Shown here piece by piece: positions 9,615 to 57,482 of a DNA stretch of 64,000 bases. The stretch is from IMG/VR virus record IMGVR_UViG_3300044680_000064, positions 9,632-73,631 of that record; one strand, 5' to 3'. The stretch's first letter is position 1. Every line of letters starts with the position of its first letter. The DNA comes from a virus (taxonomy: Duplodnaviria > Heunggongvirae > Uroviricota > Caudoviricetes). The translations under genes were made by a program, and so were the position numbers. The notes below the pieces were generated by a model. The model saw nothing but the letters and a program-made list of their open reading frames with translations, made no database searches and was not told where the DNA came from.

Positions 9615-10729
9615 TTCAAGATGTTCTGTTCAGCATCACGCCACAACCCGCGCAATTGATTCGACGTCGTGGTCAAACCGTACCTCTTTCTGGCCTCGAA
9701 CAATACGGAACTGAATGGCGTTGCGTCTTTGATGCGCAACGCGAATTCCTTCTGGCTGGTCAAGGCCGCATGGTCGATCCACAACTCAAGTAGGTGAGCG
9801 TACTCTGTCTGTATCTTGGCCTTGAGCTTGTAGAACGCCTCAGAGCATTCCGTGAAGTAAACAAGCAATTCCGATTCCTCTCCCGTTAGCACAAACGGAA
9901 GAAGGTGCTTTGGATTGAATAGGTTGTCGCCTTCGCCGCGCATGCGGTGGAGAGCCAGGTAAGTGGGCGACTTGATCTTGAATCGCCGCCCCCACTTATC
10001 GCGGATGACGACGCCCTCGAACGTTGGATCGGTCTTGCTCTCCTCGGCGAGCCACTCCTGAATCTCTTCAATGCTGTTGAACTGGAATTGCTCAACTTGG
10101 TTCAAAAGCGGGCTACCGTGGTCTGGATGAAGCTCGTGAATCGGGATCTCTTCAACACCTCGGAATGTAGATAGCAGGTAAACCTTTGGCTCATCATATT
10201 TGCGGACGATTTTGTTCCACGGCGATACAAACTCGCAAACGTAAGTGCAGGCCGGATTAAGCACATTATTGATATACGCGGCAAAATACTCGAATCCCAT
10301 CGCCTCGCGGATCGCCTCTTCCCACGTCTTGTCGCATCCATTCCCGATTACGCCGTCAGCGAATGTGCCACGGGTGTTGATCCGCCACTGCCCCTTGTAG
10401 TTGTACAGCAGGACGAGCGAGCCATCGACCTTCTCGGTGCACGTGAAATAGCTGAAGTCGAATTCGGCCATCTCGGTCTGGAACTCACCCCAGTTGAAGA
10501 ATCGCGAAAAGCCCTTGGCGACCACGTTCCAAGTATCGAGCTCGAGGACCAAGCCGCGGCACTCTCGCACGATTGGATTGGTCTTCGGGCTGTCTATTTG
10601 GTCGTAGTTCAGGATGACCAGAGGCAAATCTATATGCAACAGGTTGCTGATGCCGAGCTCAGCTTCAAGATCGCCAAGCGTCTTGCCGCTGCGCAGGTAG
10701 AGCTGAACGTTCAAGAGTCTGTCGGTCAT
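9599..10729 (-). CDS. ATP-dependent RNA ligase, T4 Rnl1-like
   Basis: Motif I TEKVDGSLV. ECRGLVLELD and SRFFNWGE resemble T4 Rnl1 ECRGIMFEMD and EKFFNLNE. Confidence 0.7.
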   Translation of the reverse strand: MTDRLLNVQLYLRSGKTLGDLEAELGISNLLHIDLPLVILNYDQIDSPKTNPIVRECRGLVLELDTWNVVAKGFSRFFNWGEFQTEMAEFDFSYFTCTEKVDGSLVLLYNYKGQWRINTRGTFADGVIGNGCDKTWEEAIREAMGFEYFAAYINNVLNPACTYVCEFVSPWNKIVRKYDEPKVYLLSTFRGVEEIPIHELHPDHGSPLLNQVEQFQFNSIEEIQEWLAEESKTDPTFEGVVIRDKWGRRFKIKSPTYLALHRMRGEGDNLFNPKHLLPFVLTGEESELLVYFTECSEAFYKLKAKIQTEYAHLLELWIDHAALTSQKEFALRIKDATPFSSVLFEARKRYGLTTTSNQLRGLWRDAEQNILKWLKS

Positions 10730-32684: not shown

Positions 32685-35492
32685 ATGGCGATCCCGCAGA
32701 AAAAACTCGATACACTTCGTCTCATCATCGCGGATCCAAAAACGGACCCGAAACTTCGCGCCGATGCTGAAGCATGTCTCGTCCGTGAGGCCACATTCGA
32801 AGAACGCTGTCCGTGGGCTTGCTACGAAGGCAGGCCGATCGAGTACGCGGAGCGCTTTCACGGCTTCCGCCTCACGCAAGATCAGAAGAAGATGTGCACG
32901 TATCTTCTTCAGCCGCCATATCGACTGCACGTTGACTCGGCCCACGGAGTTGGCAAATCGTGGCTGATGGCACTTCTGACAAACTGGTTTTTTGATACCT
33001 ACGATCCAGGCGTCGCGATCACCACCGGCCCGAGCGACAAATCGGTTCGCCAAAACATCTGGGGTCGCGTTCGTGAGATGCGTCAGGACATCAAGAAGAA
33101 GATCGCCAACTATCCATTCGCGATGATGCCGAGCAGCCCCGAGATGAAGACTGGAGAGTCGCATTGGGCCGTTGGCCAGGTCGCAGCGAAAGCCGAAGCA
33201 TTCCAGGGGAAACACTGGGAATATATGTTCTTCGGATTCGACGAGTCCGAGGGCTTGCCGGAGATTTATTTTGAGACCACCACGTCGATGTTCAAGTCGA
33301 ATGGGAAGCATTTCTGGTTCTCGATTTGCAATCCGCTATCGACCAGCTCTCCGGTGTATCTGAACACGCAAAAGATCGACTACGTCGGCCAAATGCTTTG
33401 GCGGCTCATGTCCGTGTCGGCGTTGAATCACGACAACATCAAAATCCAGATGAACGATGAAGGCAACGACACCGGCGTTGACCCGCCGATACCAGGCGCT
33501 GTGACGCTCGACCAGATTGACGACTGGATCACGGAGTACGGCTGCGACAAACTTGGACAAGGCGAGAAGCCTCAGCCGGGCGACTTCCAGTGGCGACCCA
33601 AGAAAACTAACGCGTGCCCGGAATGCGGATTGATATTTCAAAATCCAGTGGGCGGAGTTTTCCCGAAGCACGGGCAATCGCCGACCAAGCCTGATGGCTG
33701 CGAAGGAACTGGGCTGATAGCCGGTAATTGGTGGCGCCCGTCAGGGCTTGCCGAATCACGCATTCTTGGACGGCGCCCGAGCCACGGCGTCGAGGGTATT
33801 TGGAGCTCTGCGCTCTGGGAGTATTGCGAGAATCGGACAGAAGAGACTGCGATCCCATTTCCGCTTGACGAATTCCCGGAGTTCGGCTGCTTTGTCGCAG
33901 GAACTCTTGTGGAAACAAAATCTGGTCCTGTGCCGATAGAACAACTGAATGCTGGCGACATGGTTCTGACGCGGCAGGGATACAAGCGAGTGAAGGCGGC
34001 TTTTTGCACCGGGATACAACAAACACACACCCTGGTCTGCGAAAACGGACAAACTCTGACTGGGACAGGTAATCATCCAATTTGGGACGGCCACGGGTGG
34101 AAATCTCTTGGTTCGTTGACGAATCATGATATAATTTACACATGGAAACCAGCGAATACGAATACATTGAATATGACGGAATTGTTTGGCATAGAAAACC
34201 GCAAGCGAAACGGATATGGGAGCGAAACTATTTCCGCGGATACATTCCAAGACGCGGCGATATTCCCAGACGAAAACACTATCCGCTCCATCGGTATGTT
34301 TGGGAAAAATTCAACGGGCCGATTCCGAAAAGCCTCTGCATCCACCATAAGGACGAAGACACGTCCAATAACGACATCACTAATCTCGAACTACTCACGC
34401 GATCAGAGCACAGTAAGATTCATTCGGACAACTGGCGAGTCGTCCGAACAAGTGAATGTGAATTTTGCGGAAAAGAGTATCAGCACATTAGTGTGCCGTC
34501 TCGATTCTGTTCCAACAAATGCAAATGCGCATGGCGAAGAAAAAACAAAGTTGACAATGAGACCAGAACATGCAGCGAATGCTCAGTTTCATTCTCGTGT
34601 TGCAAATACGAACCAGCCACAACTTGTTCCCGTTTCTGTACGAACAAGAAATCTTGGAAAACTCGAAGAGGTCTACAACATAACAGTTGAGGATTGTCAC
34701 GAGTATTTCGCCAATGGTGTCCTCGTTCATAATTGTGACGTAGCTCGCTTTGGAGATGATGCAACTGGCTTCCACGGGCGCTGGGGCGGCGTCTCGCTGG
34801 TTCACGATCAGAAGTACGGATGGGACACAAACCAGATCGCCGGCCGACTCAAGGAAATGTGCGACGAGATGGCGCAGTTTGCAAACGCGGTGCGATTAGC
34901 AGCAGCGGTCAAGGCCGGCACGGAAAAGAACTTCAAGCCGTTCTATCCGCATCAATTTCCAGTCAAGATCGACTGCACTGGCGGCTGGGGCGGCGGCGTG
35001 CGCGACAAACGAGACAATTACAACTTCATCGAGATCAACTCATCCAGCACGGCCTATGCGGACTTGAAATATCCGAACATCCGTAGCGAGCTTTGGTTCC
35101 AAGTTGCCGAGAGGGCGCGGATGGGTCTTCTTGATTTGTCGCGGCTTGATGAGGCCGATCGGCAGGCGCTGAAGATCGAAGCGCTAGCGGTCAAATATTC
35201 GTTTGATTCGGCTGGAAGAAAGGTCGTCGAAAAGAAAGATGAGACGAAGAAAAGACTCAAACGATCTCCGGACAATGCCGACAGTTTTTGCCTAGCATTT
35301 TTGCATCACGGCCAAGCAGTTCCGCACATGGTCGGTCAAGAAATGACATCATCGCGCGGCGGACATGAAACTCTGGCGGCGAAGTTCGGAACGCTAGGGC
35401 GAGGCCCAAACTCAACTCGTGATCGCCACACGTTCGACTATGGCGCACAGCCGAAACCGGAACGCCGGTTCAAGACACTTGGAAGGCGTTAG
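32685..35492 (+). CDS. terminase large subunit containing an intein
   Basis: ATPase Walker A SAHGVGKS and Walker B FFGFDESEG. C-terminal nuclease motifs DVARFGDDATG, IDCTGGWGGG, SPDNADSF. Interrupted by Hint blocks. TAG stop. Confidence 0.8.
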   Translation: MAIPQKKLDTLRLIIADPKTDPKLRADAEACLVREATFEERCPWACYEGRPIEYAERFHGFRLTQDQKKMCTYLLQPPYRLHVDSAHGVGKSWLMALLTNWFFDTYDPGVAITTGPSDKSVRQNIWGRVREMRQDIKKKIANYPFAMMPSSPEMKTGESHWAVGQVAAKAEAFQGKHWEYMFFGFDESEGLPEIYFETTTSMFKSNGKHFWFSICNPLSTSSPVYLNTQKIDYVGQMLWRLMSVSALNHDNIKIQMNDEGNDTGVDPPIPGAVTLDQIDDWITEYGCDKLGQGEKPQPGDFQWRPKKTNACPECGLIFQNPVGGVFPKHGQSPTKPDGCEGTGLIAGNWWRPSGLAESRILGRRPSHGVEGIWSSALWEYCENRTEETAIPFPLDEFPEFGCFVAGTLVETKSGPVPIEQLNAGDMVLTRQGYKRVKAAFCTGIQQTHTLVCENGQTLTGTGNHPIWDGHGWKSLGSLTNHDIIYTWKPANTNTLNMTELFGIENRKRNGYGSETISADTFQDAAIFPDENTIRSIGMFGKNSTGRFRKASASTIRTKTRPITTSLISNYSRDQSTVRFIRTTGESSEQVNVNFAEKSISTLVCRLDSVPTNANAHGEEKTKLTMRPEHAANAQFHSRVANTNQPQLVPVSVRTRNLGKLEEVYNITVEDCHEYFANGVLVHNCDVARFGDDATGFHGRWGGVSLVHDQKYGWDTNQIAGRLKEMCDEMAQFANAVRLAAAVKAGTEKNFKPFYPHQFPVKIDCTGGWGGGVRDKRDNYNFIEINSSSTAYADLKYPNIRSELWFQVAERARMGLLDLSRLDEADRQALKIEALAVKYSFDSAGRKVVEKKDETKKRLKRSPDNADSFCLAFLHHGQAVPHMVGQEMTSSRGGHETLAAKFGTLGRGPNSTRDRHTFDYGAQPKPERRFKTLGRR
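33888..34733 (+). mobile_element. intein (282 aa) inserted at the start of the TerL nuclease domain
   Basis: Block A CFVAGTLVET, block B TGTGNHPIW, blocks F/G VYNITVEDCHEYFANGVLVHN followed by the C-extein Cys (CDVARFGDD). Confidence 0.75.
34142..34690 (+). CDS. HNH homing endonuclease encoded inside the intein in an alternate frame
   Basis: HHKDEDTSNNDITNLELLTRSEH HNH motif plus Cys-rich C-terminal zinc-ribbon repeats. Frame differs from the TerL/intein frame. TGA stop 3 codons upstream and TATAAT at 34130-34135. Confidence 0.6.
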   Translation: METSEYEYIEYDGIVWHRKPQAKRIWERNYFRGYIPRRGDIPRRKHYPLHRYVWEKFNGPIPKSLCIHHKDEDTSNNDITNLELLTRSEHSKIHSDNWRVVRTSECEFCGKEYQHISVPSRFCSNKCKCAWRRKNKVDNETRTCSECSVSFSCCKYEPATTCSRFCTNKKSWKTRRGLQHNS

Positions 35493-47505: not shown

Positions 47506-50500
47506 ATGGGAATACTACCGGCACCAAACGTCAACGCGCTGATGCGGCGCGACGACTACCCGATCGAAATTCTCGATTCCTACGGCAAGAAGCGTACTGA
47601 AGACGCCAACTTCCTGCTCGGGCACCAGCGCACGTTTGCAGCCGTCTATCAGACGTTCTCGAAGCAATACTTCTATCGCTTTGATGAAGCACGCATCCAC
47701 TCCGAAGAGAACTCGAAGGCGATGCGCAACGACGCCTTCATTTGCGCGCTGTTGCAAGAGCGGTACGTGCAGCTTACGTCATTAAACTGGCATCTTGAGG
47801 CAGAAGACGCTCGCAGCAACATTCAAGCCGAAGTCACCGGAAAACTCACGAACATCATTCGTGCAACAGACAGATGGGTCAATCTAGTTTGGACGCTTGC
47901 AGATGCCATTTGGTACGGGCGCATGGCCAGTGAATTGCGATGGGAAGCGCAGCCAGTCAACGGCGAGAACAGACTGTGTATTGTTGACCATCGACCGATT
48001 CTTGGCGACAAGATCCAATTCCAATATGACGGCCGGCCAGCGATCCAGGTCCACTCCAGCGCATTTGCCGAGTTGGAAAAAAAGGGAATCGTCAAGAAAG
48101 AAGACGAGCTCTACGGAAATCTGGCACCGACGTTGGTGCTGACCGATCCGCGCTGGCGAGACCGTTTCATATTCCATCGGCATCTCTCTGAGGATAACGA
48201 TTACTTTGAAGGCATGAAGGCTGGTGCCGTTCAGGGTATCGGATTGCGAAGTAAACTTTATTGGGCGTGGTGGCTTCGGGATGAGATCCTTGGGATGGCC
48301 TTGAACCATCTCCAGAAAATTTCGATGGGCGGAATTCTCGTCGTGTACTACGACGATGGCGACGCAGCTAGCCAGCTCGCTGCCGAGCAAGCTGCCATGA
48401 ATGCCGGCGAGCGATATGCGATCGCGATGCCGCGCACGAAAGGCAGTTCGAAGGACTCGAATGGCATGGAGTTCTTGGCGTTCAACGAAGCCGGCGTGAA
48501 GAGCATGACGGAAGTCATCTCAAGCTACTTCGAATCGCACATTGAAAGATTAGTCATCGGCCAAACTCTCTCCGCCAACACCGAAGGCTCTGGCCTGGGC
48601 GGCTCGGGCGTTGCCAGGCTGCACGAAGCGACGAAGTTGAAGCTGTTGCGATTCGACGCGCAGAACATGGCGGACACGCTGAGCAATGACTTGGTGATGG
48701 TCGCGCAGAAGTGGAACTTCCCGAACGCCAATTTCCGCACGCGATTCGTTTTTGACATACCGGACCCGGACGCCGCGGCGAAGTTGGAAGCGGCGATGAA
48801 GTTCATCCAGATCGGCGGCGTCGCGAAGGCGGAAGACGTGCGTCGATTTGCGGAGTTGGCGAAGCCGGAGAAAGACGATGAGGTGCTCTCGCAAGAACTC
48901 GTGCAGCGTAAGCAGATGGGCATCCAGATCGAAGGTCAGTTGCTTCTTGCCAAAGGGACGATGGCCTTGCAGCAGCAGGCAGTCCTCGAACAGCAGGCCC
49001 AGCAAGCTCAGCAGATGCAGGCGCTCGGCGCGAGCCCGCAAGCAGCCGCTCCGGGGCAGTCGGCCGCACCAGCCGCTGCTCAGCAATCAGCTCCAGCAGA
49101 AGCTCCAGCGGAACAAGAGCAAGCTGCTGCGCCAGCCGAACAGTCCGCGACACCCGAGCAAGGCGGCGGAGAAGCAACTGCCGCCGAAGTCGAGAACAAG
49201 CTGCTCGATATAGTTGCTGGCGATACCGATCCTGAATTGCCGAACATCGACCTTGGCGAAGAGCCGGTGATGGCGATGGAGGATGGAAAACTTGTACGCT
49301 ATGAATCAACCCATGCACCAAAAGGTGGCGTACAAATTCGCGGAGAATTTTATCCGGGCGGGCGCTTCATCCCTGGGGCTGTATTGGCTGCTGCCTCTCC
49401 GGAAGAAAAAGCCGAATTGGCCGCGAAGAAAGCCGAATCCGGTGAAGAAGTTCCTCAGATGCCGGCAGCGGGGCAGGATCAGCAACAAGTAGCCGCTAGC
49501 GACGAAGAACAGCCACAACCTCAGCCGCAAGAACAGCAGGTCGCGCAGGTTGTCCAGAAGATTCAAGCTCTCCCGGCGGTTCCGGAAGACGAATATCCGG
49601 CACTGCAAGAGACTCTATGGAAAGGCACAAAGAATCAGCGCGGCGTCGATCCGGAACAGCAGGAGGTTGTCTGGGCCAAGATGCTCGAGCTGTCACAGAT
49701 TCCTCGTGAGCAGTTTGCGAAAGTCGCCGGCCAGTTGTATTACAAAGCGACGCGGGCCGATCGAACGGAAGATGACAAGATCAATGCTAAAGCAGCTGGC
49801 TTGGTTCAGGGCTATATGCACCAGCGCGGCAAGATGGTCCGCGAGCAGGCGAGTACCCACGGCTTGCCGGCAGTGATCGACCGCGAAGTCCAGTCGGCGC
49901 AGAAATACATCAAGGGTCGCGGGCTGAAGATCGCGACGCAGCCGAAGTTCGTGAAGCGCCAATTCAATGACGATCTCATCAACCGCGGGATCGCCAGTGT
50001 CAGCGCTCCGTGGGTTGGTCTTGATCCGGACACGCTCAAGCAGAGGGCACGCGATGCCGACCAAGCTAGTCGTGTCGCCGGCCGGCGCGATCGCGATCAG
50101 TTCTTGGCAAATCCAAATGTGCAATCAGCGCTCATGGCAGCCAAAGGACCGAATGCGACTCCACAAGACAAGTACCGCGCCGAAGACGTACTGCGCGAAG
50201 CCGACAATGTGTACGATGATACGCGCGAATTCGAGAAGCGGGAGCGGCTTGGCTCTCTTGAGCACAAACAGAAAGTGCACCTTGCGAGCTCACTCGCGAC
50301 GGCGGACCTGATTAAGCACATTCTCAAGTGGGGCATCGACATCGCCGGGCCGATCGTCGGCGATTATGTGAAACGCAAGGTCAGCGGACGGCACGCGCAC
50401 ACCTACGCGGCCGATGATGGCGTCGTGGAGTATTCGGCCGCGGACGTGAGCGATGAGATCATTCTTGAGCTGACATTCTTGCTTCGCGACCGGATCAAGA

Positions 50501-51282
50501 ATCGCGTTCGGCGCCAGCAAATCGGGATTTCGGAAATTGAGCTTGAGCAAATGGCTACCGAGCAGGCGAAGATCTTCGCTCCGATGCTCGCGACTGTTAT
50601 CTTGCAAGTCGCAGCCGGTCAGGCGCCGACAGCGGCGCTAGAAGCAGGAATCTCCGAAGGCCAACAGGCAGCCGACTCGCAGAATCAACCGCAAGGCCCG
50701 CCGACTGGCGAACAGATGCAGGAAGCAGAGCAACAGCAACTGGAACAAACGCGAGTCTACTTCGACGACAACGGAGCGATGGTTGTCGAGTACGCTTCGC
50801 AAGCGTCTCCAAACACACATATCGACTGGACGCCAGACGGCGGCAATCGAGTGTTGGACATCGGCCGACTCTTGGAGATGGTTAAGTCTCGTCAGCCGTA
50901 CACGATTTCATTGGAGTCTGTGCGCCCGGACCTAATCAACCGTTCGCCTGACGCCGGCTTTAGCCAAGGGAAATACAAGAACTGCAACGTTGAAGTTCCG
51001 GCGCTCATTGATTCGCATGGCCGGTTGATCGACGGCCGACATCGCGCCGCGAAACTGTTCGACATGGGAGCTGACTCAATGCCGGCTCATGTCATCAACG
51101 AAGCCGAATTAAAAAAGGCGACGGTGCGAGCGAATCCGCCGATGGAAGGTCTCCACAAAAAGTTTGCCGGCTACGAAGGCACGCCGATGAGCGGGTATGG
51201 CGGCGAAGACGACGGCGACTCGCAGCCAAAACTCCCCGAAGGCCACGTCATCTCTCCAGAAGGCGAAACGGCCGCGAATTGA
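47506..51282 (+). CDS. portal-like protein fused to head-morphogenesis and ParB-like nuclease domains (1258 aa)
   Basis: N-terminal ~500 aa resemble a Mu gp29/DUF935-type portal. A Q/A-rich low-complexity linker follows. C-terminal LIDGRHRAAKL matches the ParB/Srx DGxHR motif. Confidence 0.5.
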   Translation: MGILPAPNVNALMRRDDYPIEILDSYGKKRTEDANFLLGHQRTFAAVYQTFSKQYFYRFDEARIHSEENSKAMRNDAFICALLQERYVQLTSLNWHLEAEDARSNIQAEVTGKLTNIIRATDRWVNLVWTLADAIWYGRMASELRWEAQPVNGENRLCIVDHRPILGDKIQFQYDGRPAIQVHSSAFAELEKKGIVKKEDELYGNLAPTLVLTDPRWRDRFIFHRHLSEDNDYFEGMKAGAVQGIGLRSKLYWAWWLRDEILGMALNHLQKISMGGILVVYYDDGDAASQLAAEQAAMNAGERYAIAMPRTKGSSKDSNGMEFLAFNEAGVKSMTEVISSYFESHIERLVIGQTLSANTEGSGLGGSGVARLHEATKLKLLRFDAQNMADTLSNDLVMVAQKWNFPNANFRTRFVFDIPDPDAAAKLEAAMKFIQIGGVAKAEDVRRFAELAKPEKDDEVLSQELVQRKQMGIQIEGQLLLAKGTMALQQQAVLEQQAQQAQQMQALGASPQAAAPGQSAAPAAAQQSAPAEAPAEQEQAAAPAEQSATPEQGGGEATAAEVENKLLDIVAGDTDPELPNIDLGEEPVMAMEDGKLVRYESTHAPKGGVQIRGEFYPGGRFIPGAVLAAASPEEKAELAAKKAESGEEVPQMPAAGQDQQQVAASDEEQPQPQPQEQQVAQVVQKIQALPAVPEDEYPALQETLWKGTKNQRGVDPEQQEVVWAKMLELSQIPREQFAKVAGQLYYKATRADRTEDDKINAKAAGLVQGYMHQRGKMVREQASTHGLPAVIDREVQSAQKYIKGRGLKIATQPKFVKRQFNDDLINRGIASVSAPWVGLDPDTLKQRARDADQASRVAGRRDRDQFLANPNVQSALMAAKGPNATPQDKYRAEDVLREADNVYDDTREFEKRERLGSLEHKQKVHLASSLATADLIKHILKWGIDIAGPIVGDYVKRKVSGRHAHTYAADDGVVEYSAADVSDEIILELTFLLRDRIKNRVRRQQIGISEIELEQMATEQAKIFAPMLATVILQVAAGQAPTAALEAGISEGQQAADSQNQPQGPPTGEQMQEAEQQQLEQTRVYFDDNGAMVVEYASQASPNTHIDWTPDGGNRVLDIGRLLEMVKSRQPYTISLESVRPDLINRSPDAGFSQGKYKNCNVEVPALIDSHGRLIDGRHRAAKLFDMGADSMPAHVINEAELKKATVRANPPMEGLHKKFAGYEGTPMSGYGGEDDGDSQPKLPEGHVISPEGETAAN

Positions 51283-51354: not shown

Positions 51355-54300
51355 ATGGCAATCGTCACATATTCGGATCCAACCGTAGACTTCTTGAAAA
51401 CGCTCGACGACCCACGCCTCTGGGTCAAAGTGGAAAATGCACCTATCTTCAAGCCGCACGAGCGCACAATCAAGGGACCGGACGGCGCCGAGAAGAAAAT
51501 CGTCATCACCGAAGACGATTTGGAGCCGATTGCCCAGCAAATCAACCAATTGGCGGCTGACGATGGCTCCCTGCCGATCATGACCATCGGGCACCGCGTC
51601 CAAAACGATCCCAATTTCAAGGAAACCAATCAGCCGCCGTGGGTCGGTGTCGTCTGCAACGCCAAAAAGGGAACTTTCGGCCCGAAGAACAAGCCGGCTA
51701 TCACCGCGACCCTGTATTACAAGCGAAAGCACTGGGAAGAGGCCAAGGAATACCCGTTTCGCAGCATTGATTTCTACCCTGGATCGAACAAGGTATCCGG
51801 CGTCGCCCTGCTCACTCGCGATCCATACCTGTCGATGGGAATCATTTCCTACCAATCAGAAGACGCCTTGACGACGCCGTGGACCTATCACGCGCCGGCT
51901 AATGATGTTCCCGAGAGCCACACGTCCGTGCGAGCGCCAAAGGAAGGTATTGAGCTCGGTGGCCATAAGTTCGGACCAGGCCACTACATACCGCCTCACT
52001 ACATAGCGCACGCCACGCCTGAACAGTATTCGATGCTGACCGCTCGTCCGGCAGTTCCGGCGATCAAGCAGACCGGCTCGGTTCAGTCGCATGGTCTGTC
52101 CACACCAAAGGTTTCGACTCAGCGAGCCGCGAAGGAAATCGCCGCGGCCGGAAAGGCGCACATGGCTACGCACGGTGCCAACGGACCAATTCATAACGAC
52201 GGCGGCGAAGAAGCAGAAGAATACGCGCTGACGCAGCGTTTGAAGTCTGGGGCTGCGAAGTTTGGCAAGCGAACCGCGGCGAAAGCGATTCACAGCACTG
52301 CCGGCCATGCGGCGATCGGCGCTGGCGTCGGTGCCCTGGTTGGTGGAGCGCACAGCGCAATCAAGGGCGACAGCGTCGGCGAAGGTGCCGCGAAGGGCGC
52401 GATCGCTGGCGGTGCAGCCGGTGCTGCGTCGAAACAAATCTCGAAAAAGTTCCAGAAAAAGCGAATCAGCATCCCGGCTGTAATGACCTCGGCAGCTGGC
52501 AAGAAGCCAGTGAAGTATGGTCAGGGCGAGAAAATCGGCCGCACCATCGGCGAAATCGGCGGCGGGATCGCTGGCGGAGTCGGCGGCTCATTGGTGACTC
52601 CGGTTGTGGGCACGGCGATCGGCGGCGCGGGCGGGGCGCTGGCTGGCGGCGAGCTTGGAGCCGAACTTGGGAAGCACTTCGACAAGCCGGTGAAGATGGA
52701 GTCTGGTGGTGAGTCTCCGGTGCGAGCACCAGCTGGCGGGCTGGACATTGACGGCTGTCACTTCGCCGCAAATCATTACATCCCACCGAAGTACGTGGCG
52801 ATGATGACGCCCGAGCAGCACAAACTCTGCGGTAGCGATGGCGAGGCGGCGGAGTATAGCCTCGGTTCGAAAATGAAGAATGCCGCCGGCGCGGCGGCAT
52901 TGCTTGCCGGAACGATGGGCGGGATTCATTCGGTCCAAAAAGCCACGAATCCAGTTCGTGTCGGCATTCAGCAGGCCAATCAGCATGCCACGCAGAAGCG
53001 AGCGAATTCGGTGCAAATCGCGCCGCCAATACCAACCCGCCATGAGGCCGGAAAGAAGCCAGCGCAATACGGCGCGGCGAGTTCGCTAATCAAAGGCGCG
53101 GTCAATCTCGGCAAGGGCGCTCTCAAGAGCCAGACTCTACGGCGAGCGGCCACGGATGCAGCTGTTCAGGGGGGGCTCGATGTAGGCGTGAAGGCGCTTG
53201 GCGATCAGCTTTCAGGCCAAGGAATCAAGCACACGCTCACCGATCCGGCGACGCTTCACACCGGCTTGCTTGGAGCAGCCGCTGGCGGCGCAGCGGGGGC
53301 GATCGACCACAAACTGAACGGCGGCAAAACGGCTGTGCCAGCGGCATCGAACGACTCGCTTGGCAGTGCTCAATTGCAAGGGAAACGCAAGCCGGTCGCA
53401 TACGTCCTGAAGCCGCACGTCATGGTCGATCCGGGCAGCGGACAGCTCAAGATGGGCTACCAAAACATCTACGACGGGACAATCTGCTACGACGTTCAGC
53501 ACGCGCCGGCTGGCGCTCCGACGTCGCTGGCAGGAAAGACGTTCAAGCCAGGCGAATTCATCCCGGCCGCTGACATGGCGAAGGCGACGCCACAAGAAAA
53601 GGCCGCACTGTCGCAGCCGAAACCGGCAGCGGGCGCGATGCCTCAACTCGGCGGCGGCCTGCCTCAATTGCCGAAAATTCCCGGTGCCGCTCCTGCGCCA
53701 GCGGGCATGCCAACGATGGCCGCGCCGGGCGGAGAAGCAGGCAAGATGCCGGCCATGCCAACCGCAAAACCGCAAGCCGAATCTCCAGCGCCTGCCGCGA
53801 AGCCAGCAGCCGAAGCGCCGAAGGGTGCCGCACCGGCGAAAGTTGAAGCGCCAGAAGCGGACTTGTCCAAGACTGTGACGGACTTTGCGTCAACAGCTCC
53901 GCCTGAATTGCGCAAGGCGCTGACGAATCATCTCAATCAAACGATGGCCGGAAAACTCGGCAAGTTCATCAGCGGGGCGTCGCCCGAGCAACTCGAGAAA
54001 ATTGCCGCTGATTTGGCCAAGAAGCCGGTTTCTGACAATGGGCCGTCATGGGGAAAACTCATCACTGGTTCCGTTGAAGACGCCGGCCACGTCATTGGCA
54101 TCGGCAAAGGCGCGGACAAGCGTAGCTGGTGGGAGAAGAACGCTCCGAAGTGGCTTGGCGGAGCGGTCGATAAAAGCTATCGCGCCAACTTGGAAAAGTA
54201 TCCGGCGAAGAAGGCCGCGTCGATTGCGGTAATCGTTGGAGTGCTTGCAGGCGGATTCGCGGCCAAGCATTACATCAAGAAAAAAATCGGTGTCTCGATT

Positions 54301-55605
54301 CCGACCAAAGGCGGAACGGTCGGCGGCGTTGTCGGTAAAGGCATTGATTCGGTGATGCCGCTCATCGCGCACCAGTCTCCCGAAAACCCGCTGACTTTGC
54401 CTGCGTCAAATCGGCTGCGTTCCCCTACGTCTGTTGTAGCTTACGCGATGAGTATGCCAGGCTCGACAGACGCCAGCGTGCCACATTCAGCAGAGGGCCA
54501 CATGGCTGACGACAGCGAAGACGAAAACGAGCGTAACGAGAAACCGGGCGATCAGTCCGGCGAGACGGCAGGCGAAGAGCGTCAGGTCGCCGAAGAAGAC
54601 AAAGAGCCGGAAGGCTACGCTCAGCATTGCAAGTGCATGGAATACGCGATGCAGCATCACCCGAGGCTGTATGGCGTCGTTCAGCACTACGAAAACGCGA
54701 TGGCAGCCGAAGGCGCGAATCAAGAAGGCGACGCGGATCAGGAAGCGGCTCAAGACGACGAAGCCGCGGCCAGTGATTGCGAAGCCGCGGCCGACGAAGA
54801 GCATCAAGGCGAAGACGACGCCGAACTTCAGCGAATTCTCGGCGGCGGCGCCAAGGAAATGCCGGAACCTGAAGGCGACAAGCCGCAAGGATACGGCGTT
54901 GAAAAACTTCTGCCCGGCGGCGAGCAAGCGGACACGCTCGGGAAAAGCGCTCTCGGTGCCGGCCTTGGCGGACTAGCCGGTCTCGGTGTCGGTTCTGTTT
55001 TGGGTCATCCAGGAGCCGGAGCCGCAGTTGGCGCTGGCTTGGGCGGTTTAGCGGGGAAAAAAGTCATGTCTCAAGGCGATCAAGTTCCGGCCACGTATGC
55101 CGCGGCCGTCAACAATGCGTTTGAACAGGTCATCACCGAGCTCCGCTCTGTCAAGGGCGAGGTCGGGCAGCTCAAGCAGCGAGACGCCGCGAAGAGCAAG
55201 ACGATCGAAACGCTCTCCCGCGAGCGTGACGAAGCCAAGACGGTCGCCCTCATGTACCAGCTCCGGAATACCGGCGTGAAAGCCATTGGTCAGCCGGGCT
55301 CCAAGGAAGAGAAGGCCGTTTACGATCTTCTCCTCGCGATGGACGAGCCGAGCCGCACGGCCGAAGTCACCCGCATGCTGGCGTACTACGAAAAAGACGC
55401 CTCGACTCCGTACACGAATGCTGGCGCTCCGACCGGCCCGATGCTCGGCTCTGGTTTCGTGAGTCAAGCCGCTGTCACCGCGAACTCGAAACCGAAGACT
55501 CTGCCTCCGCACAAACTCGACGAAGCCTTGAAGTATATGCGGAAGACTGGCAAGGAGTTCGACGAGTGCGCCCAGTACGTGATGGACGGCGGCTCGGTCA
55601 ACTGA
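51355..55605 (+). CDS. giant head protein: Mu gpI-like protease/scaffold candidate with Gly-zipper repeats (1416 aa)
   Basis: Sits between the portal and the capsid gene. Tripled GxHYIPPxYxAxxTPEQ motif, GxxxG-rich tracts, acidic segment and terminal coiled coil. Confidence 0.5.
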   Translation: MAIVTYSDPTVDFLKTLDDPRLWVKVENAPIFKPHERTIKGPDGAEKKIVITEDDLEPIAQQINQLAADDGSLPIMTIGHRVQNDPNFKETNQPPWVGVVCNAKKGTFGPKNKPAITATLYYKRKHWEEAKEYPFRSIDFYPGSNKVSGVALLTRDPYLSMGIISYQSEDALTTPWTYHAPANDVPESHTSVRAPKEGIELGGHKFGPGHYIPPHYIAHATPEQYSMLTARPAVPAIKQTGSVQSHGLSTPKVSTQRAAKEIAAAGKAHMATHGANGPIHNDGGEEAEEYALTQRLKSGAAKFGKRTAAKAIHSTAGHAAIGAGVGALVGGAHSAIKGDSVGEGAAKGAIAGGAAGAASKQISKKFQKKRISIPAVMTSAAGKKPVKYGQGEKIGRTIGEIGGGIAGGVGGSLVTPVVGTAIGGAGGALAGGELGAELGKHFDKPVKMESGGESPVRAPAGGLDIDGCHFAANHYIPPKYVAMMTPEQHKLCGSDGEAAEYSLGSKMKNAAGAAALLAGTMGGIHSVQKATNPVRVGIQQANQHATQKRANSVQIAPPIPTRHEAGKKPAQYGAASSLIKGAVNLGKGALKSQTLRRAATDAAVQGGLDVGVKALGDQLSGQGIKHTLTDPATLHTGLLGAAAGGAAGAIDHKLNGGKTAVPAASNDSLGSAQLQGKRKPVAYVLKPHVMVDPGSGQLKMGYQNIYDGTICYDVQHAPAGAPTSLAGKTFKPGEFIPAADMAKATPQEKAALSQPKPAAGAMPQLGGGLPQLPKIPGAAPAPAGMPTMAAPGGEAGKMPAMPTAKPQAESPAPAAKPAAEAPKGAAPAKVEAPEADLSKTVTDFASTAPPELRKALTNHLNQTMAGKLGKFISGASPEQLEKIAADLAKKPVSDNGPSWGKLITGSVEDAGHVIGIGKGADKRSWWEKNAPKWLGGAVDKSYRANLEKYPAKKAASIAVIVGVLAGGFAAKHYIKKKIGVSIPTKGGTVGGVVGKGIDSVMPLIAHQSPENPLTLPASNRLRSPTSVVAYAMSMPGSTDASVPHSAEGHMADDSEDENERNEKPGDQSGETAGEERQVAEEDKEPEGYAQHCKCMEYAMQHHPRLYGVVQHYENAMAAEGANQEGDADQEAAQDDEAAASDCEAAADEEHQGEDDAELQRILGGGAKEMPEPEGDKPQGYGVEKLLPGGEQADTLGKSALGAGLGGLAGLGVGSVLGHPGAGAAVGAGLGGLAGKKVMSQGDQVPATYAAAVNNAFEQVITELRSVKGEVGQLKQRDAAKSKTIETLSRERDEAKTVALMYQLRNTGVKAIGQPGSKEEKAVYDLLLAMDEPSRTAEVTRMLAYYEKDASTPYTNAGAPTGPMLGSGFVSQAAVTANSKPKTLPPHKLDEALKYMRKTGKEFDECAQYVMDGGSVN

Positions 55606-56367: not shown

Positions 56368-56790
56368 TTGTCATGTAAGGAGTTAGGTATGGGCCTCCAG
56401 CAAGGCTTTATCGCGAATGGTAACATTTACCCTTGCCGTTTCGTCATCATCGACACGAGCGTCGGTCAGGGCGGACGAGTGGACCAGTCCGGTGCCGGCG
56501 GCGTCATCTTCGGCGTGAGCCAGAAGGATTGCCGCATCGCTCCGATTCTGGACTCGAACGGCTACGCGGCCTCGGCTGGCGAACCGATCGCGGTCTACGA
56601 CCTGAACAGCGAGTGCGCCCTCGAAATCTCCGCGACCGTGACTCAGGGTCAGCTCTTGAAGAGCGACTCGAACGGCGAAGGCACGCCGGTCACGACCGAC
56701 AAGGACATCTACGGTGCCGTGGCGCTTCAGAACGGCGTCGCTGGCGACCAGATCAAGGTTAAGGTCTTGTTCGGCTATTACGAGGGTTGA
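56368..56790 (+). CDS. head decoration-like protein (DUF2190-like, 140 aa)
   Basis: GNIYPCRFVIIDTSVGQ...GDQIKVKVLFGYYEG. Sits immediately before the capsid gene. Confidence 0.45.
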   Translation: MSCKELGMGLQQGFIANGNIYPCRFVIIDTSVGQGGRVDQSGAGGVIFGVSQKDCRIAPILDSNGYAASAGEPIAVYDLNSECALEISATVTQGQLLKSDSNGEGTPVTTDKDIYGAVALQNGVAGDQIKVKVLFGYYEG

Positions 56791-57398
56791 TCGGATTCGT
56801 CTGCGTATACGCGAGATTTGCCGCGACCGTATCCGAGCTTGAGAGGAAGACCGAGTGCTTGGCGTTTGGACTTTATTTGCGAAACAACAGGACCAAGCAA
56901 TAGCATTTCTTCCTCAGTGAATTGGTTGCCTTTGATAACGTTGCAAAGGCCACAACATGGAACGACATTGTCGAGCGTGTAATGTCCGGCACTGTCAACG
57001 CGATCGAGCCAGGTGCCATTTTCGTGCGGCGTGAATTTGCAGTAGTGGCACGGCTGAAGTATTAAGTCTCCGTACTGCTCGATCGTTAAATGGAATTCGT
57101 GTTTTGCGCGACGAGCTGTGATCTTGGCAAATGTGAATCGGCCCTTAATCGTGCGACGATAAGCACGTGCCCTTAGAGCTTCGCAATGCAGGCAACGATA
57201 GGAGAATCGACGTTTTTGGATGCCGCTTGCGGTCGTGAGATTTTTAGCCACGAACTTGTCATAAGGCTTCCATTGTTTGCAGGTGCTACAGCGAAGTAAT
57301 TCTGGCGGTTGCGTTCTTTCCATGCAGCGCTTGCAGAGACCATCAATGACGGCTTTTGAAAGTTTGCAGTAGAGACAAAGGTCCATGAGGTTCTCCAA
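56778..57398 (-). CDS. HNH homing endonuclease (free-standing, inserted in the head module)
   Basis: GHYTLDNVVPCCGLCNVIKG HNH motif with N-terminal CxxC zinc fingers. Convergent overlap with the decoration gene. Confidence 0.65.
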   Translation of the reverse strand: MENLMDLCLYCKLSKAVIDGLCKRCMERTQPPELLRCSTCKQWKPYDKFVAKNLTTASGIQKRRFSYRCLHCEALRARAYRRTIKGRFTFAKITARRAKHEFHLTIEQYGDLILQPCHYCKFTPHENGTWLDRVDSAGHYTLDNVVPCCGLCNVIKGNQFTEEEMLLLGPVVSQIKSKRQALGLPLKLGYGRGKSRVYADESDQPS

Positions 57399-57482
57399 AC
57401 AAATACTGGTATTAGAGCATTATACCAGAATATGTTTTGAGAAACACGCCAGTCACAACAGCGTTTGGAGAAAAGGTTTAAC

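Follow-up and report, generated by a model that had tools for sequence, protein, structure and literature searches.

The terminase large subunit gene (terL) described here lies on a stretch of 64,000 nucleotides from a Caudoviricetes virus (IMG/VR record IMGVR_UViG_3300044680_000064, positions 9,632 to 73,631), which was analysed as a whole and is referred to as the window. The terL open reading frame (ORF) contains an intein, and the DNA between the two splicing lobes of this intein contains, in a different reading frame, an HNH endonuclease gene. The two parts very probably form a composite selfish element, a mini-intein in terL with a free-standing-type HNH_3 gene that is overprinted on the intein linker at +2 and translated separately. 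The +2 arrangement is observed in ~117 metagenomic and viral loci, or about 120 when isolated phages are included, with 0 in-frame members, and in related loci it is the HNH frame that is under purifying selection over the shared bases.

The intein and the nested HNH gene

The features of the locus, all on the + strand, are as follows.

32685..35492, +: TerL (terminase large subunit) precursor ORF of 935 amino acids, coordinate mod 3 = 0, from the ORF list
33888..34733, +: intein of 282 amino acids (Cys402-Asn683 of TerL), Pfam Hint_2 and Intein_splicing, not in P0003-P0006
33888..34154, +: Hint N-terminal splicing lobe, intein residues 1-89, β-strand architecture, AlphaFold2 confidence (pLDDT, a predicted score on the local distance difference test) of 80-94
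34127..34135, +: TGATATAAT, an extended -10-like element with its hexamer at -12 to -7 from the A of the HNH ATG
34142..34690, +: nested HNH_3 homing-endonuclease gene of 182 amino acids, ATG to TGA, mod 3 = 2 and thus +2 relative to TerL
34155..34610, +: intein-frame linker, intein residues 90-241 (152 residues), a "shadow" translation of the HNH gene, pLDDT ~30
34611..34690, +: dual-coding stretch of ~27 codons, predicted HNH C-terminal helix and tail over the first structured Hint-C strands
34611..34733, +: Hint C-terminal splicing lobe (blocks F and G, ending in VLVHN), pLDDT 80-94
34734..34736, +: codon of the +1 extein nucleophile Cys, conserved among relatives

The terL gene is a single uninterrupted ORF of 935 codons, so that the host gene is not split in two, and its product is matched at 100% by P0001 in the protein collection. 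In the TerL frame, the Pfam families Hint_2 (E = 1.5e-9) and Intein_splicing (E = 7.5e-9) are matched on either side of an insert. The intein-less TerL homologues P0003-P0006 are ~600 amino acids long, have no counterpart of residues 402-683, and align continuously over the junction (G/CDVAR, where the slash marks the splice point). The insert is assigned to the class-1 Hint inteins and sits at nuclease motif I of TerL (G/CDVARFGDD). It starts with CFVAGTLVET, contains GTGNHP (T60/H63, block B), and ends with VLVHN, and the next residue is Cys; Cys1, T60/H63, His281-Asn282, and the +1 Cys are invariant or nearly so across the intein relatives. The AlphaFold2 model of the intein frame comprises two confident β-rich Hint lobes (residues 1-89 and 242-283; pLDDT 80-94). 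Judged by the conserved catalytic residues and the predicted fold, the mini-intein is probably splicing-competent, and its Hint lobes would splice the intein out to give a mature TerL of 653 amino acids, the length that is left when the intein is subtracted from the ORF.

The linker between the lobes has a different character. Ser, Thr, Asn, and Arg together make up 41% of its residues versus 21% in the exteins, in agreement with the description of this segment as Ser/Thr/Asn/Arg-rich in the initial annotation. In the intein frame, translation over the overlap gives no HNH match in a Pfam search and is predicted to be disordered. Ribosomes on terL would thus read the HNH DNA as a 152-residue disordered linker that need only stay stop-free; the disorder is a prediction, and the open frame is observed directly, with 0 stops in the TerL frame and 13 stops in the third frame across the overlap. 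The sole close relative of the window locus is P0002 (829 amino acids), in which the intein occupies the same site and the linker is equally long; tblastn of all fetched loci found none close to the window or P0002. Between the inteins of the window and P0002, identity is 67% in Hint-N, 66% in Hint-C, and 34% in the linker as read in the intein frame, and their exteins are 36-50% identical (N-extein 36%). The GC content over 33950-34700, which spans the intein and the HNH gene, is 0.43-0.48, and that of the flanking terL is 0.55-0.59; the HNH gene itself has a GC content of 0.446 versus 0.55-0.56 in the exteins, with a trough of 0.43-0.46 along it. The lowered GC suggests a foreign origin for the intein and HNH gene as a whole.

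The product of the +2 frame is an HNH protein. Pfam assigns it to HNH_3 (PF13392) with E = 9.3e-19 and 67.2 bits (cutoff 24.8), as the initial annotation had proposed when it read an HNH endonuclease of 182 amino acids with zinc-ribbon repeats from the ATG at 34142 in a frame other than that of TerL. The repeats are two zinc ribbons, of the forms CxxC...RFCSNKC and then CxxC...TCSRxC in the family, and their eight Cys are kept among the invariant residues. The database homologues of the product are stand-alone HNH_3 proteins (61/61), mostly of 195-265 amino acids, and none has a Hint domain; the ORF itself is without an exact match in the protein collection, where its best match is 42% identical. 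From Met1 to the stop codon, the nested HNH is colinear with free-standing homologues of ~200 amino acids except for a central deletion of ~45 residues, and nested and free-standing proteins share a layout of β-hairpin, HNH core, helical linker, and two zinc ribbons. Residues H68, H69, N77, N81, and H90 are invariant in an alignment of 33 HNH sequences. The predicted structure of the HNH frame has a mean pLDDT of 91.7, and its top match among solved structures is I-HmuI (1u3e; probability 1.00, 163 aligned columns), at 19% identity and a low global TM-score of 0.33. The limits of the dual-coding stretch come from the two structure predictions, with an HNH helix at residues 164-175 and a Hint strand at residues 245-267. 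The nested ORF is, by these comparisons, a free-standing-type HNH gene with a self-contained start and stop.

The central deletion bears on whether the window copy is active. In most homologues, a helical segment of ~45 residues (EWHKSxEGRxWH) connects the HNH core to the first zinc ribbon; this segment is missing from the window HNH, which has 182 residues where most homologues have ~200-220. This loss counts against a functional nuclease in the window, since the deletion could weaken the enzyme, but it is unlikely that the arrangement is real and the window copy, its ORF still open, is a decaying, inactive endonuclease on its way to a mini-intein. All 22 of the 22 family-invariant residues in the 33-sequence alignment are kept, including the catalytic His and Asn and the eight zinc-ribbon Cys, and the fold is modelled with high confidence. 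The short form is also conserved in P0002, as judged by length, despite the divergence of the exteins, and several other nested copies are similarly short.

Recurrence in relatives, mini-inteins, and proposed homing

The nested arrangement recurs in loci that are distant from the window. Three loci recovered as DNA for the proteins P0007, P0009, and P0011 (L001-L003) each carry an HNH_3 ORF of 185-230 amino acids at +2 in a homologous intein; their TerL proteins belong to other families, and the insertion site is a different one. Among isolated phages, tblastn finds a +2 HNH within terL of Tetrasphaera phage TJE1 (L004), Acinetobacter phage Highwayman (L005), and Clostridium phage phiCDHM19 (L007), the offset being +2 in 3/3. 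The nested ORFs of these phages lie at 2501-3148 of L004 (HQ225832), 2489-3136 of L005 (OZ038341), and 2056-2721 of L007 (LK985322) and are unannotated, with the terminase as the only coding sequence listed there. The same search also places the HNH family, frame aside, in a gene of phiCD119 and, in several phages of Vibrio and Rhodobacteraceae, within terminase genes or genes with a Hint domain. In Acinetobacter phage BP10 (L006), the HNH homologue is annotated as a gene of its own, immediately upstream of terS and next to an intein-less terL, and Highwayman, with its nested HNH, and BP10 make up a natural pair for homing work.

Two censuses of 80 loci each give the frequency of the arrangement. 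In the first, a metagenome scan with the intein alignment whose query held the linker and so favoured out-of-frame members, the HNH is at +2 in 76/80 loci and at frame 0 or +1 in 0/80, and 4/80 have no nested HNH match; the intein frame is stop-free in 79/80 of these metagenomic loci, over a GC range of 31-67%. The second census covered viral contigs with the Hint lobes alone as the query. It contains 41-46 long inteins with a +2 HNH and 32-36 mini-inteins, and none of its 80 loci has an in-frame, +1, or antisense HNH. Over 103 loci, the median identity is 38% for Hint-N and 34% for HNH, and the two are positively correlated (Spearman 0.33), which fits a long association of both parts. At two metagenomic loci, L016 (1161-2150) and L049 (956-2074), a second, weaker match to the HNH family lies upstream of the intein, within a long open segment and with zinc-ribbon and HNH modules in altered order; this extra match may represent a further nuclease gene or an additional insertion.

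The intein family occupies two sites in TerL, and at each of these the residues directly past the splice point are C-D-x-x-R-[FY]. Most members are located at nuclease motif III (...DD.G/CDALRY...), and the window and P0002 are at motif I (...FG/CDVARFGDD). This local sequence similarity suggests that it aided a switch of insertion site.

Relatives that have lost the HNH gene are common. The mini-intein of P0010 is 128 amino acids long versus 341 in P0008 and P0012, and mini-inteins of 128-145 amino acids with the HNH gene deleted are observed in P0010, in L034, L054, and L080, and in 32-36 of L088-L167. In L034, a remnant of the last zinc ribbon is left in the +2 frame. These forms, to which loss of the HNH gene would lead, fit a homing cycle in its phase of degeneration. 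Homing of the intein together with the nuclease gene, driven by the HNH protein, is inferred because the intein lobes outdo the exteins in conservation between the window and P0002, intein-less alleles exist, the intein family occupies two TerL sites with a shared motif past the splice point, HNH-deleted relatives are common, and the distribution is sporadic. As suggested by its family and distribution, the I-HmuI-like nuclease would cut or nick the intein-less terL of co-infecting relatives, and repair would copy the intein and nuclease gene together.

The location in terL also invites another function, that of a domesticated, terminase-associated cofactor for packaging or cos cleavage (of the HK97-like kind) instead of a homing enzyme. 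Free-standing homologues are often neighbours of a terminase or portal gene (e.g. in BP10, PAE1, and CL2), and all nested copies are in terL. Such a role is nonetheless improbable given the sporadic distribution, with P0003-P0006 lacking both intein and HNH, and the existence of mini-inteins without HNH (P0010 versus P0008 and P0012, and the 32-36 viral loci). The better conservation of the intein than of the exteins, the foreign GC composition, and a closest structure that is a homing enzyme, I-HmuI, also point away from a packaging cofactor.

Selection on the two frames and the start of the HNH gene

The ratio of nonsynonymous to synonymous substitution rates (dN/dS) was determined for three pairs of related loci with a divergence of 4-9%. 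In the HNH frame, substitutions at first, second, and third codon positions number 11/11/42, 3/4/19, and 11/13/38 in the three pairs, an excess at third positions, and dN/dS is 0.17, 0.10, and 0.16. Over the same bases, dN/dS in the intein frame is 2.4, 3.0, and 1.6. In the Hint N-lobe, the intein frame gives 0.11, 0, and 0.17. This pattern indicates that purifying selection changes frame at the boundaries of the nested gene.

The openness of the intein frame was assessed by resampling the synonymous codons of each HNH gene and counting stops in the intein frame. The resulting P(0 stops) is 0.10 for L004, 0.05 for L002, 0.005 for L001, 0.0007 for L005, and below 0.0003 for L007, and the third frame of the resampled loci always contains 6-33 stops. 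For the window lineage, selection can be followed through the protein of P0002: a +2-frame codon combines the last base of a TerL codon with bases one and two of the codon that follows, which makes the P0002 protein directly testable. That protein can encode the window HNH residue in the +2 frame at 140/177 positions, with no forced stop, versus 36.5 +/- 5.4 (maximum 57) in 2000 shuffles and 25 in a +1-frame control. Two points detract from this case. For the window alone, P(0 stops) in the intein frame is 0.24, which is weakly significant, and the test of selection in the window lineage is indirect, being a constrained back-translation of the P0002 protein. Because of the value of 0.24, the significance of the open frame rests on the relatives, and it is the family that is taken as decisive.

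The initial annotation left a choice between two origins, compensating indels in an ordinary HNH intein and a free-standing endonuclease gene nested in a mini-intein. Under the first of these, which would make the arrangement an artefact or recent damage, the HNH frame is a dead relic and its start codon and -10 box are coincidental. The exact protein is found in one contig only (P0001), canonical in-frame HNH_3 inteins do exist, e.g. in the DNA polymerase P0016, and the open TerL frame of the window taken alone is the weak result given above. The +2 offset in ~120 loci, isolates included, with zero in-frame members and with the HNH frame under purifying selection, contradicts this origin, and in P0002 the intein frame is much less well kept than the HNH frame. 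The N-terminus and stop of the ORF are the native ones of its free-standing homologues, and no homopolymer runs are observed at the frame junctions of the window. Two compensating indels are thus a very improbable explanation. The second origin is the one borne out, by the conserved +2 offset, the selection on the HNH frame, the 140/177 positions of P0002, and the colinear homologues.

In 77/77 loci, a start codon (ATG in 61, GTG in 15, and TTG in 1) is present in the HNH frame where the free-standing homologues begin, and in most loci a stop in the HNH frame is located 0-5 codons upstream of this start. In the window, this stop is the TGA at 34127-34129; its presence agrees with the initial annotation, which placed it three codons upstream of the ATG, but four sense codons (TAT AAT TTA CAC) separate the two. 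In phiCDHM19, AAAGGAG lies 8 nucleotides upstream of the HNH GTG, which speaks for an independent, host-adapted initiation. Independent initiation of the HNH is well supported by these comparisons, and the 182-residue HNH protein would be made separately from the ATG at 34142, either from a leaderless transcript that starts by way of TGATATAAT or by internal initiation on the terL mRNA.

The alternative in which the endonuclease is not an independent gene is programmed -1 ribosomal frameshifting, which would yield a Hint-N-HNH fusion. The constant +2 (equivalent to -1) position of the HNH in the family would suit such a mechanism, and cases of the endonuclease VII type described in actinophages share the frame (10.1101/2025.01.02.630785). 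The possibility is slight, as the HNH-frame stops just upstream of the start, the TGA four codons ahead of the ATG in the window, the absence of an X XXY YYZ slippery heptamer between that TGA and the ATG, the start codons at the position of free-standing homologues in 77/77 loci, and host-appropriate start signals such as the AAAGGAG of the Clostridium phage all oppose it.

The sequence upstream of the HNH ATG contains a candidate signal. A perfect TATAAT is present at 34130-34135, as previously noted, followed by 6 nucleotides and the ATG at 34142, and it is part of the full extended -10 element TGATATAAT. In the Hint frame TGATATAAT encodes (H)-D-I-I, and its TGA doubles as the upstream stop of the HNH frame. 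The motif TGnTATAAT occurs twice in the 64-kb window versus 0.4 expected. The other occurrence (TGGTATAAT) is on the - strand at 57419-57427, 21 nucleotides upstream of the TTG with which ORF 56778-57398 of that strand starts; this site is plausibly a real promoter, and its presence suggests that the genome makes use of extended -10 signals.

Among relatives, TAnnnT is found precisely at -12 to -7 in 25/70 non-redundant loci, against a background of 0.94% per position and 0-4 at adjoining offsets, and in 10/28 further non-redundant viral loci that were not part of forming the hypothesis. T1, A2, and T6 are fixed in the loci with TAnnnT, and positions 3-5 vary. In the Hint frame, T1 falls on the wobble position of a conserved Asp, which is encoded by GAT in 25/25 loci versus 10.0 expected from each locus's own codon usage, in a test made without conditioning on TAnnnT. 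The codon after this Asp is ATA or AGA in 18/25 loci, codons that the high-GC loci otherwise hardly use. The H-D-R-V of P0002 could be encoded with GAT AGA GTN, giving TAGAGT. In loci that already have the TGA, the T at -12 cannot be put down to the requirement for a stop. The codon and position bias of the hexamer suggests selection on the nucleotides themselves. Its geometry would best fit a leaderless promoter, and the main alternative is an A/U-rich translation enhancer, which would leave a similar signal.

Several observations tell against the promoter. A sigma-70 -35/-10 scan finds no promoter at the site, because there is no -35 element at 17 bp; recognition of a sigma-70-type -10 in the host is assumed; the loci are related, and the TAnnnT counts are not independent events; and approximately one-third of the relatives have a Shine-Dalgarno-like start context instead. 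As a candidate -35 element, TTGACG at 34116-34121 was rejected, being just 8 nucleotides from the hexamer. The leaderless -10 box proposed in the initial annotation has gained comparative support from the 25/70 and 10/28 loci and stands as a candidate. A promoter role for the embedded TGATATAAT is plausible on the combined evidence.

A more far-reaching reading can be put forward tentatively. The Hint family may be an evolutionarily stable, obligately two-frame element and not a transient step to an in-frame intein. Its endonuclease gene would carry a portable TGnTAnnnT -10 that starts transcription on the start codon, is written in the codons of the last Hint-N β-strand, and is kept by synonymous-site selection across phages of several phyla, with Shine-Dalgarno sequences replacing it in some hosts. 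If this is true, ~15 nucleotides would serve at once as a promoter, as a structural segment of a protein, and as the border of a second gene.

Known systems, phage context, and significance

The composite element most closely resembles the out-of-frame homing-endonuclease inteins of Gosselin et al. (2025; 10.1101/2025.01.02.630785), a preprint that presents the frame 3 arrangement as a first report, calls it rare, and proposes that a free-standing endonuclease invaded an intein. Similar to the window, those elements contain a same-strand His-Me-finger nuclease ORF between the splicing blocks in frame 3 (+2) with the intein frame open, they are found in phage genes that include the terminase large subunit, and the intein-frame translation is described there as unstructured. 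The main differences are the nuclease and the Hint domain. Theirs is endonuclease VII-like (IPR004211), with a core of the CVDHDHETGRVRGLLCNDCN type at residues 1-67 (CVDHDH...CNDCN), whereas the window has HNH_3 followed by two zinc ribbons, and their Hint sequence is CMTGDTPVLM... in place of CFVAGTLVET.... In tblastn searches with the HNH proteins of the window and L002, none of the phages of that preprint was matched. Membership of the window element in that family is ruled out by the different nuclease, the different Hint, and the lack of a tblastn cross-match. The elements of the preprint are described as limited to actinophages, whereas those described here are found in phages of Actinobacteria, Firmicutes, and Proteobacteria and in many metagenomic contigs; its main text never mentions start codons (0 occurrences), and no conserved start-proximal motif is described in the sections consulted. 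Because its nuclease and Hint differ from those of the preprint, the window element represents a distinct and widespread lineage of a recently recognised, rare kind. Compared with those parts of the literature, the invariable +2 frame, the frame-switching selection signature, and the conserved start-proximal hexamer appear to go beyond published descriptions.

Other systems share single aspects of this organization. The "hidden" out-of-frame HNH insertions of the ShiLan-domain type that Arsenault et al. (2025, PMC11855218) describe in DNA methylases of phages also consist of an out-of-frame HNH in an open host ORF, with a GTG or ATG a few codons into the insert and leaderless initiation proposed by the authors; they include no intein or splicing element, and the host protein retains the insert, whereas in the window protein splicing would remove it. 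A homing endonuclease that is out of frame within a cyanobacterial dnaX intein is described in a 2026 preprint. Canonical bifunctional HNH inteins, such as that of the DNA polymerase P0016, have the same DNA order of Hint lobe, HNH_3 with zinc ribbon, and Hint lobe, but combine both activities in one polypeptide, whereas the window has two frames, two start codons, and two proteins. In "fractured genes" (Dassa et al. 2009, PMC2677866), a free-standing-type endonuclease gene is likewise located at the endonuclease position of an intein and was read as invasion by a homing endonuclease gene; there the host gene is divided into two ORFs joined by trans-splicing, in contrast to the continuous host ORF of the window. 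I-HmuI has an HNH core with an extended multi-module DNA-binding layout, which the nested protein shares in its predicted structure, but its gene lies in a group I intron, and its tail is a helix-turn-helix where the nested family has two zinc ribbons.

The window is phage-like and also encodes a DnaB-type helicase, an SPFH protein, a Mu-type portal, and a BCS1-like AAA ATPase. In the ORF at 47506-51282 (1258 amino acids), the Mu-type portal domain is confined to the first ~450 residues, leaving a big uncharacterised extension, and the ORF at 51355-55605 (1416 amino acids) is very large and has weak glycine-zipper matches only. TerL itself contains, at 33600-33735 of the window (residues ~306-350), a Cys-containing insertion of ~40 amino acids (RPKKTNACPECGLIFQNPVGGVFPKHGQSPTKPDGCEGTGLIAGN) that is missing from P0002-P0006 and may be a small zinc-ribbon insert in the linker between the ATPase and nuclease.

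The composite element offers strong comparative support for the "splicing first" model, until recently no more than a proposal, in which inteins gain endonucleases by capturing free-standing homing endonuclease genes, and it indicates that a captured endonuclease gene can persist for a long time as a separate, overprinted gene. Gene callers miss such nested ORFs, as evidenced by the unmatched 182-residue ORF and the unannotated ORFs of the isolates, and phages are consequently under-annotated for nucleases; "low-complexity" intein linkers can signal a hidden gene. Culturable carriers in which the predictions can be tested include Highwayman (for which BP10 is a relative with the free-standing homologue), TJE1, and the two C. 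difficile phages phiCDHM19 and phiCD119. The locus is a compact natural case of dual coding with an embedded expression signal and is relevant to overlapping genes and to the engineering of inteins and homing endonuclease genes.

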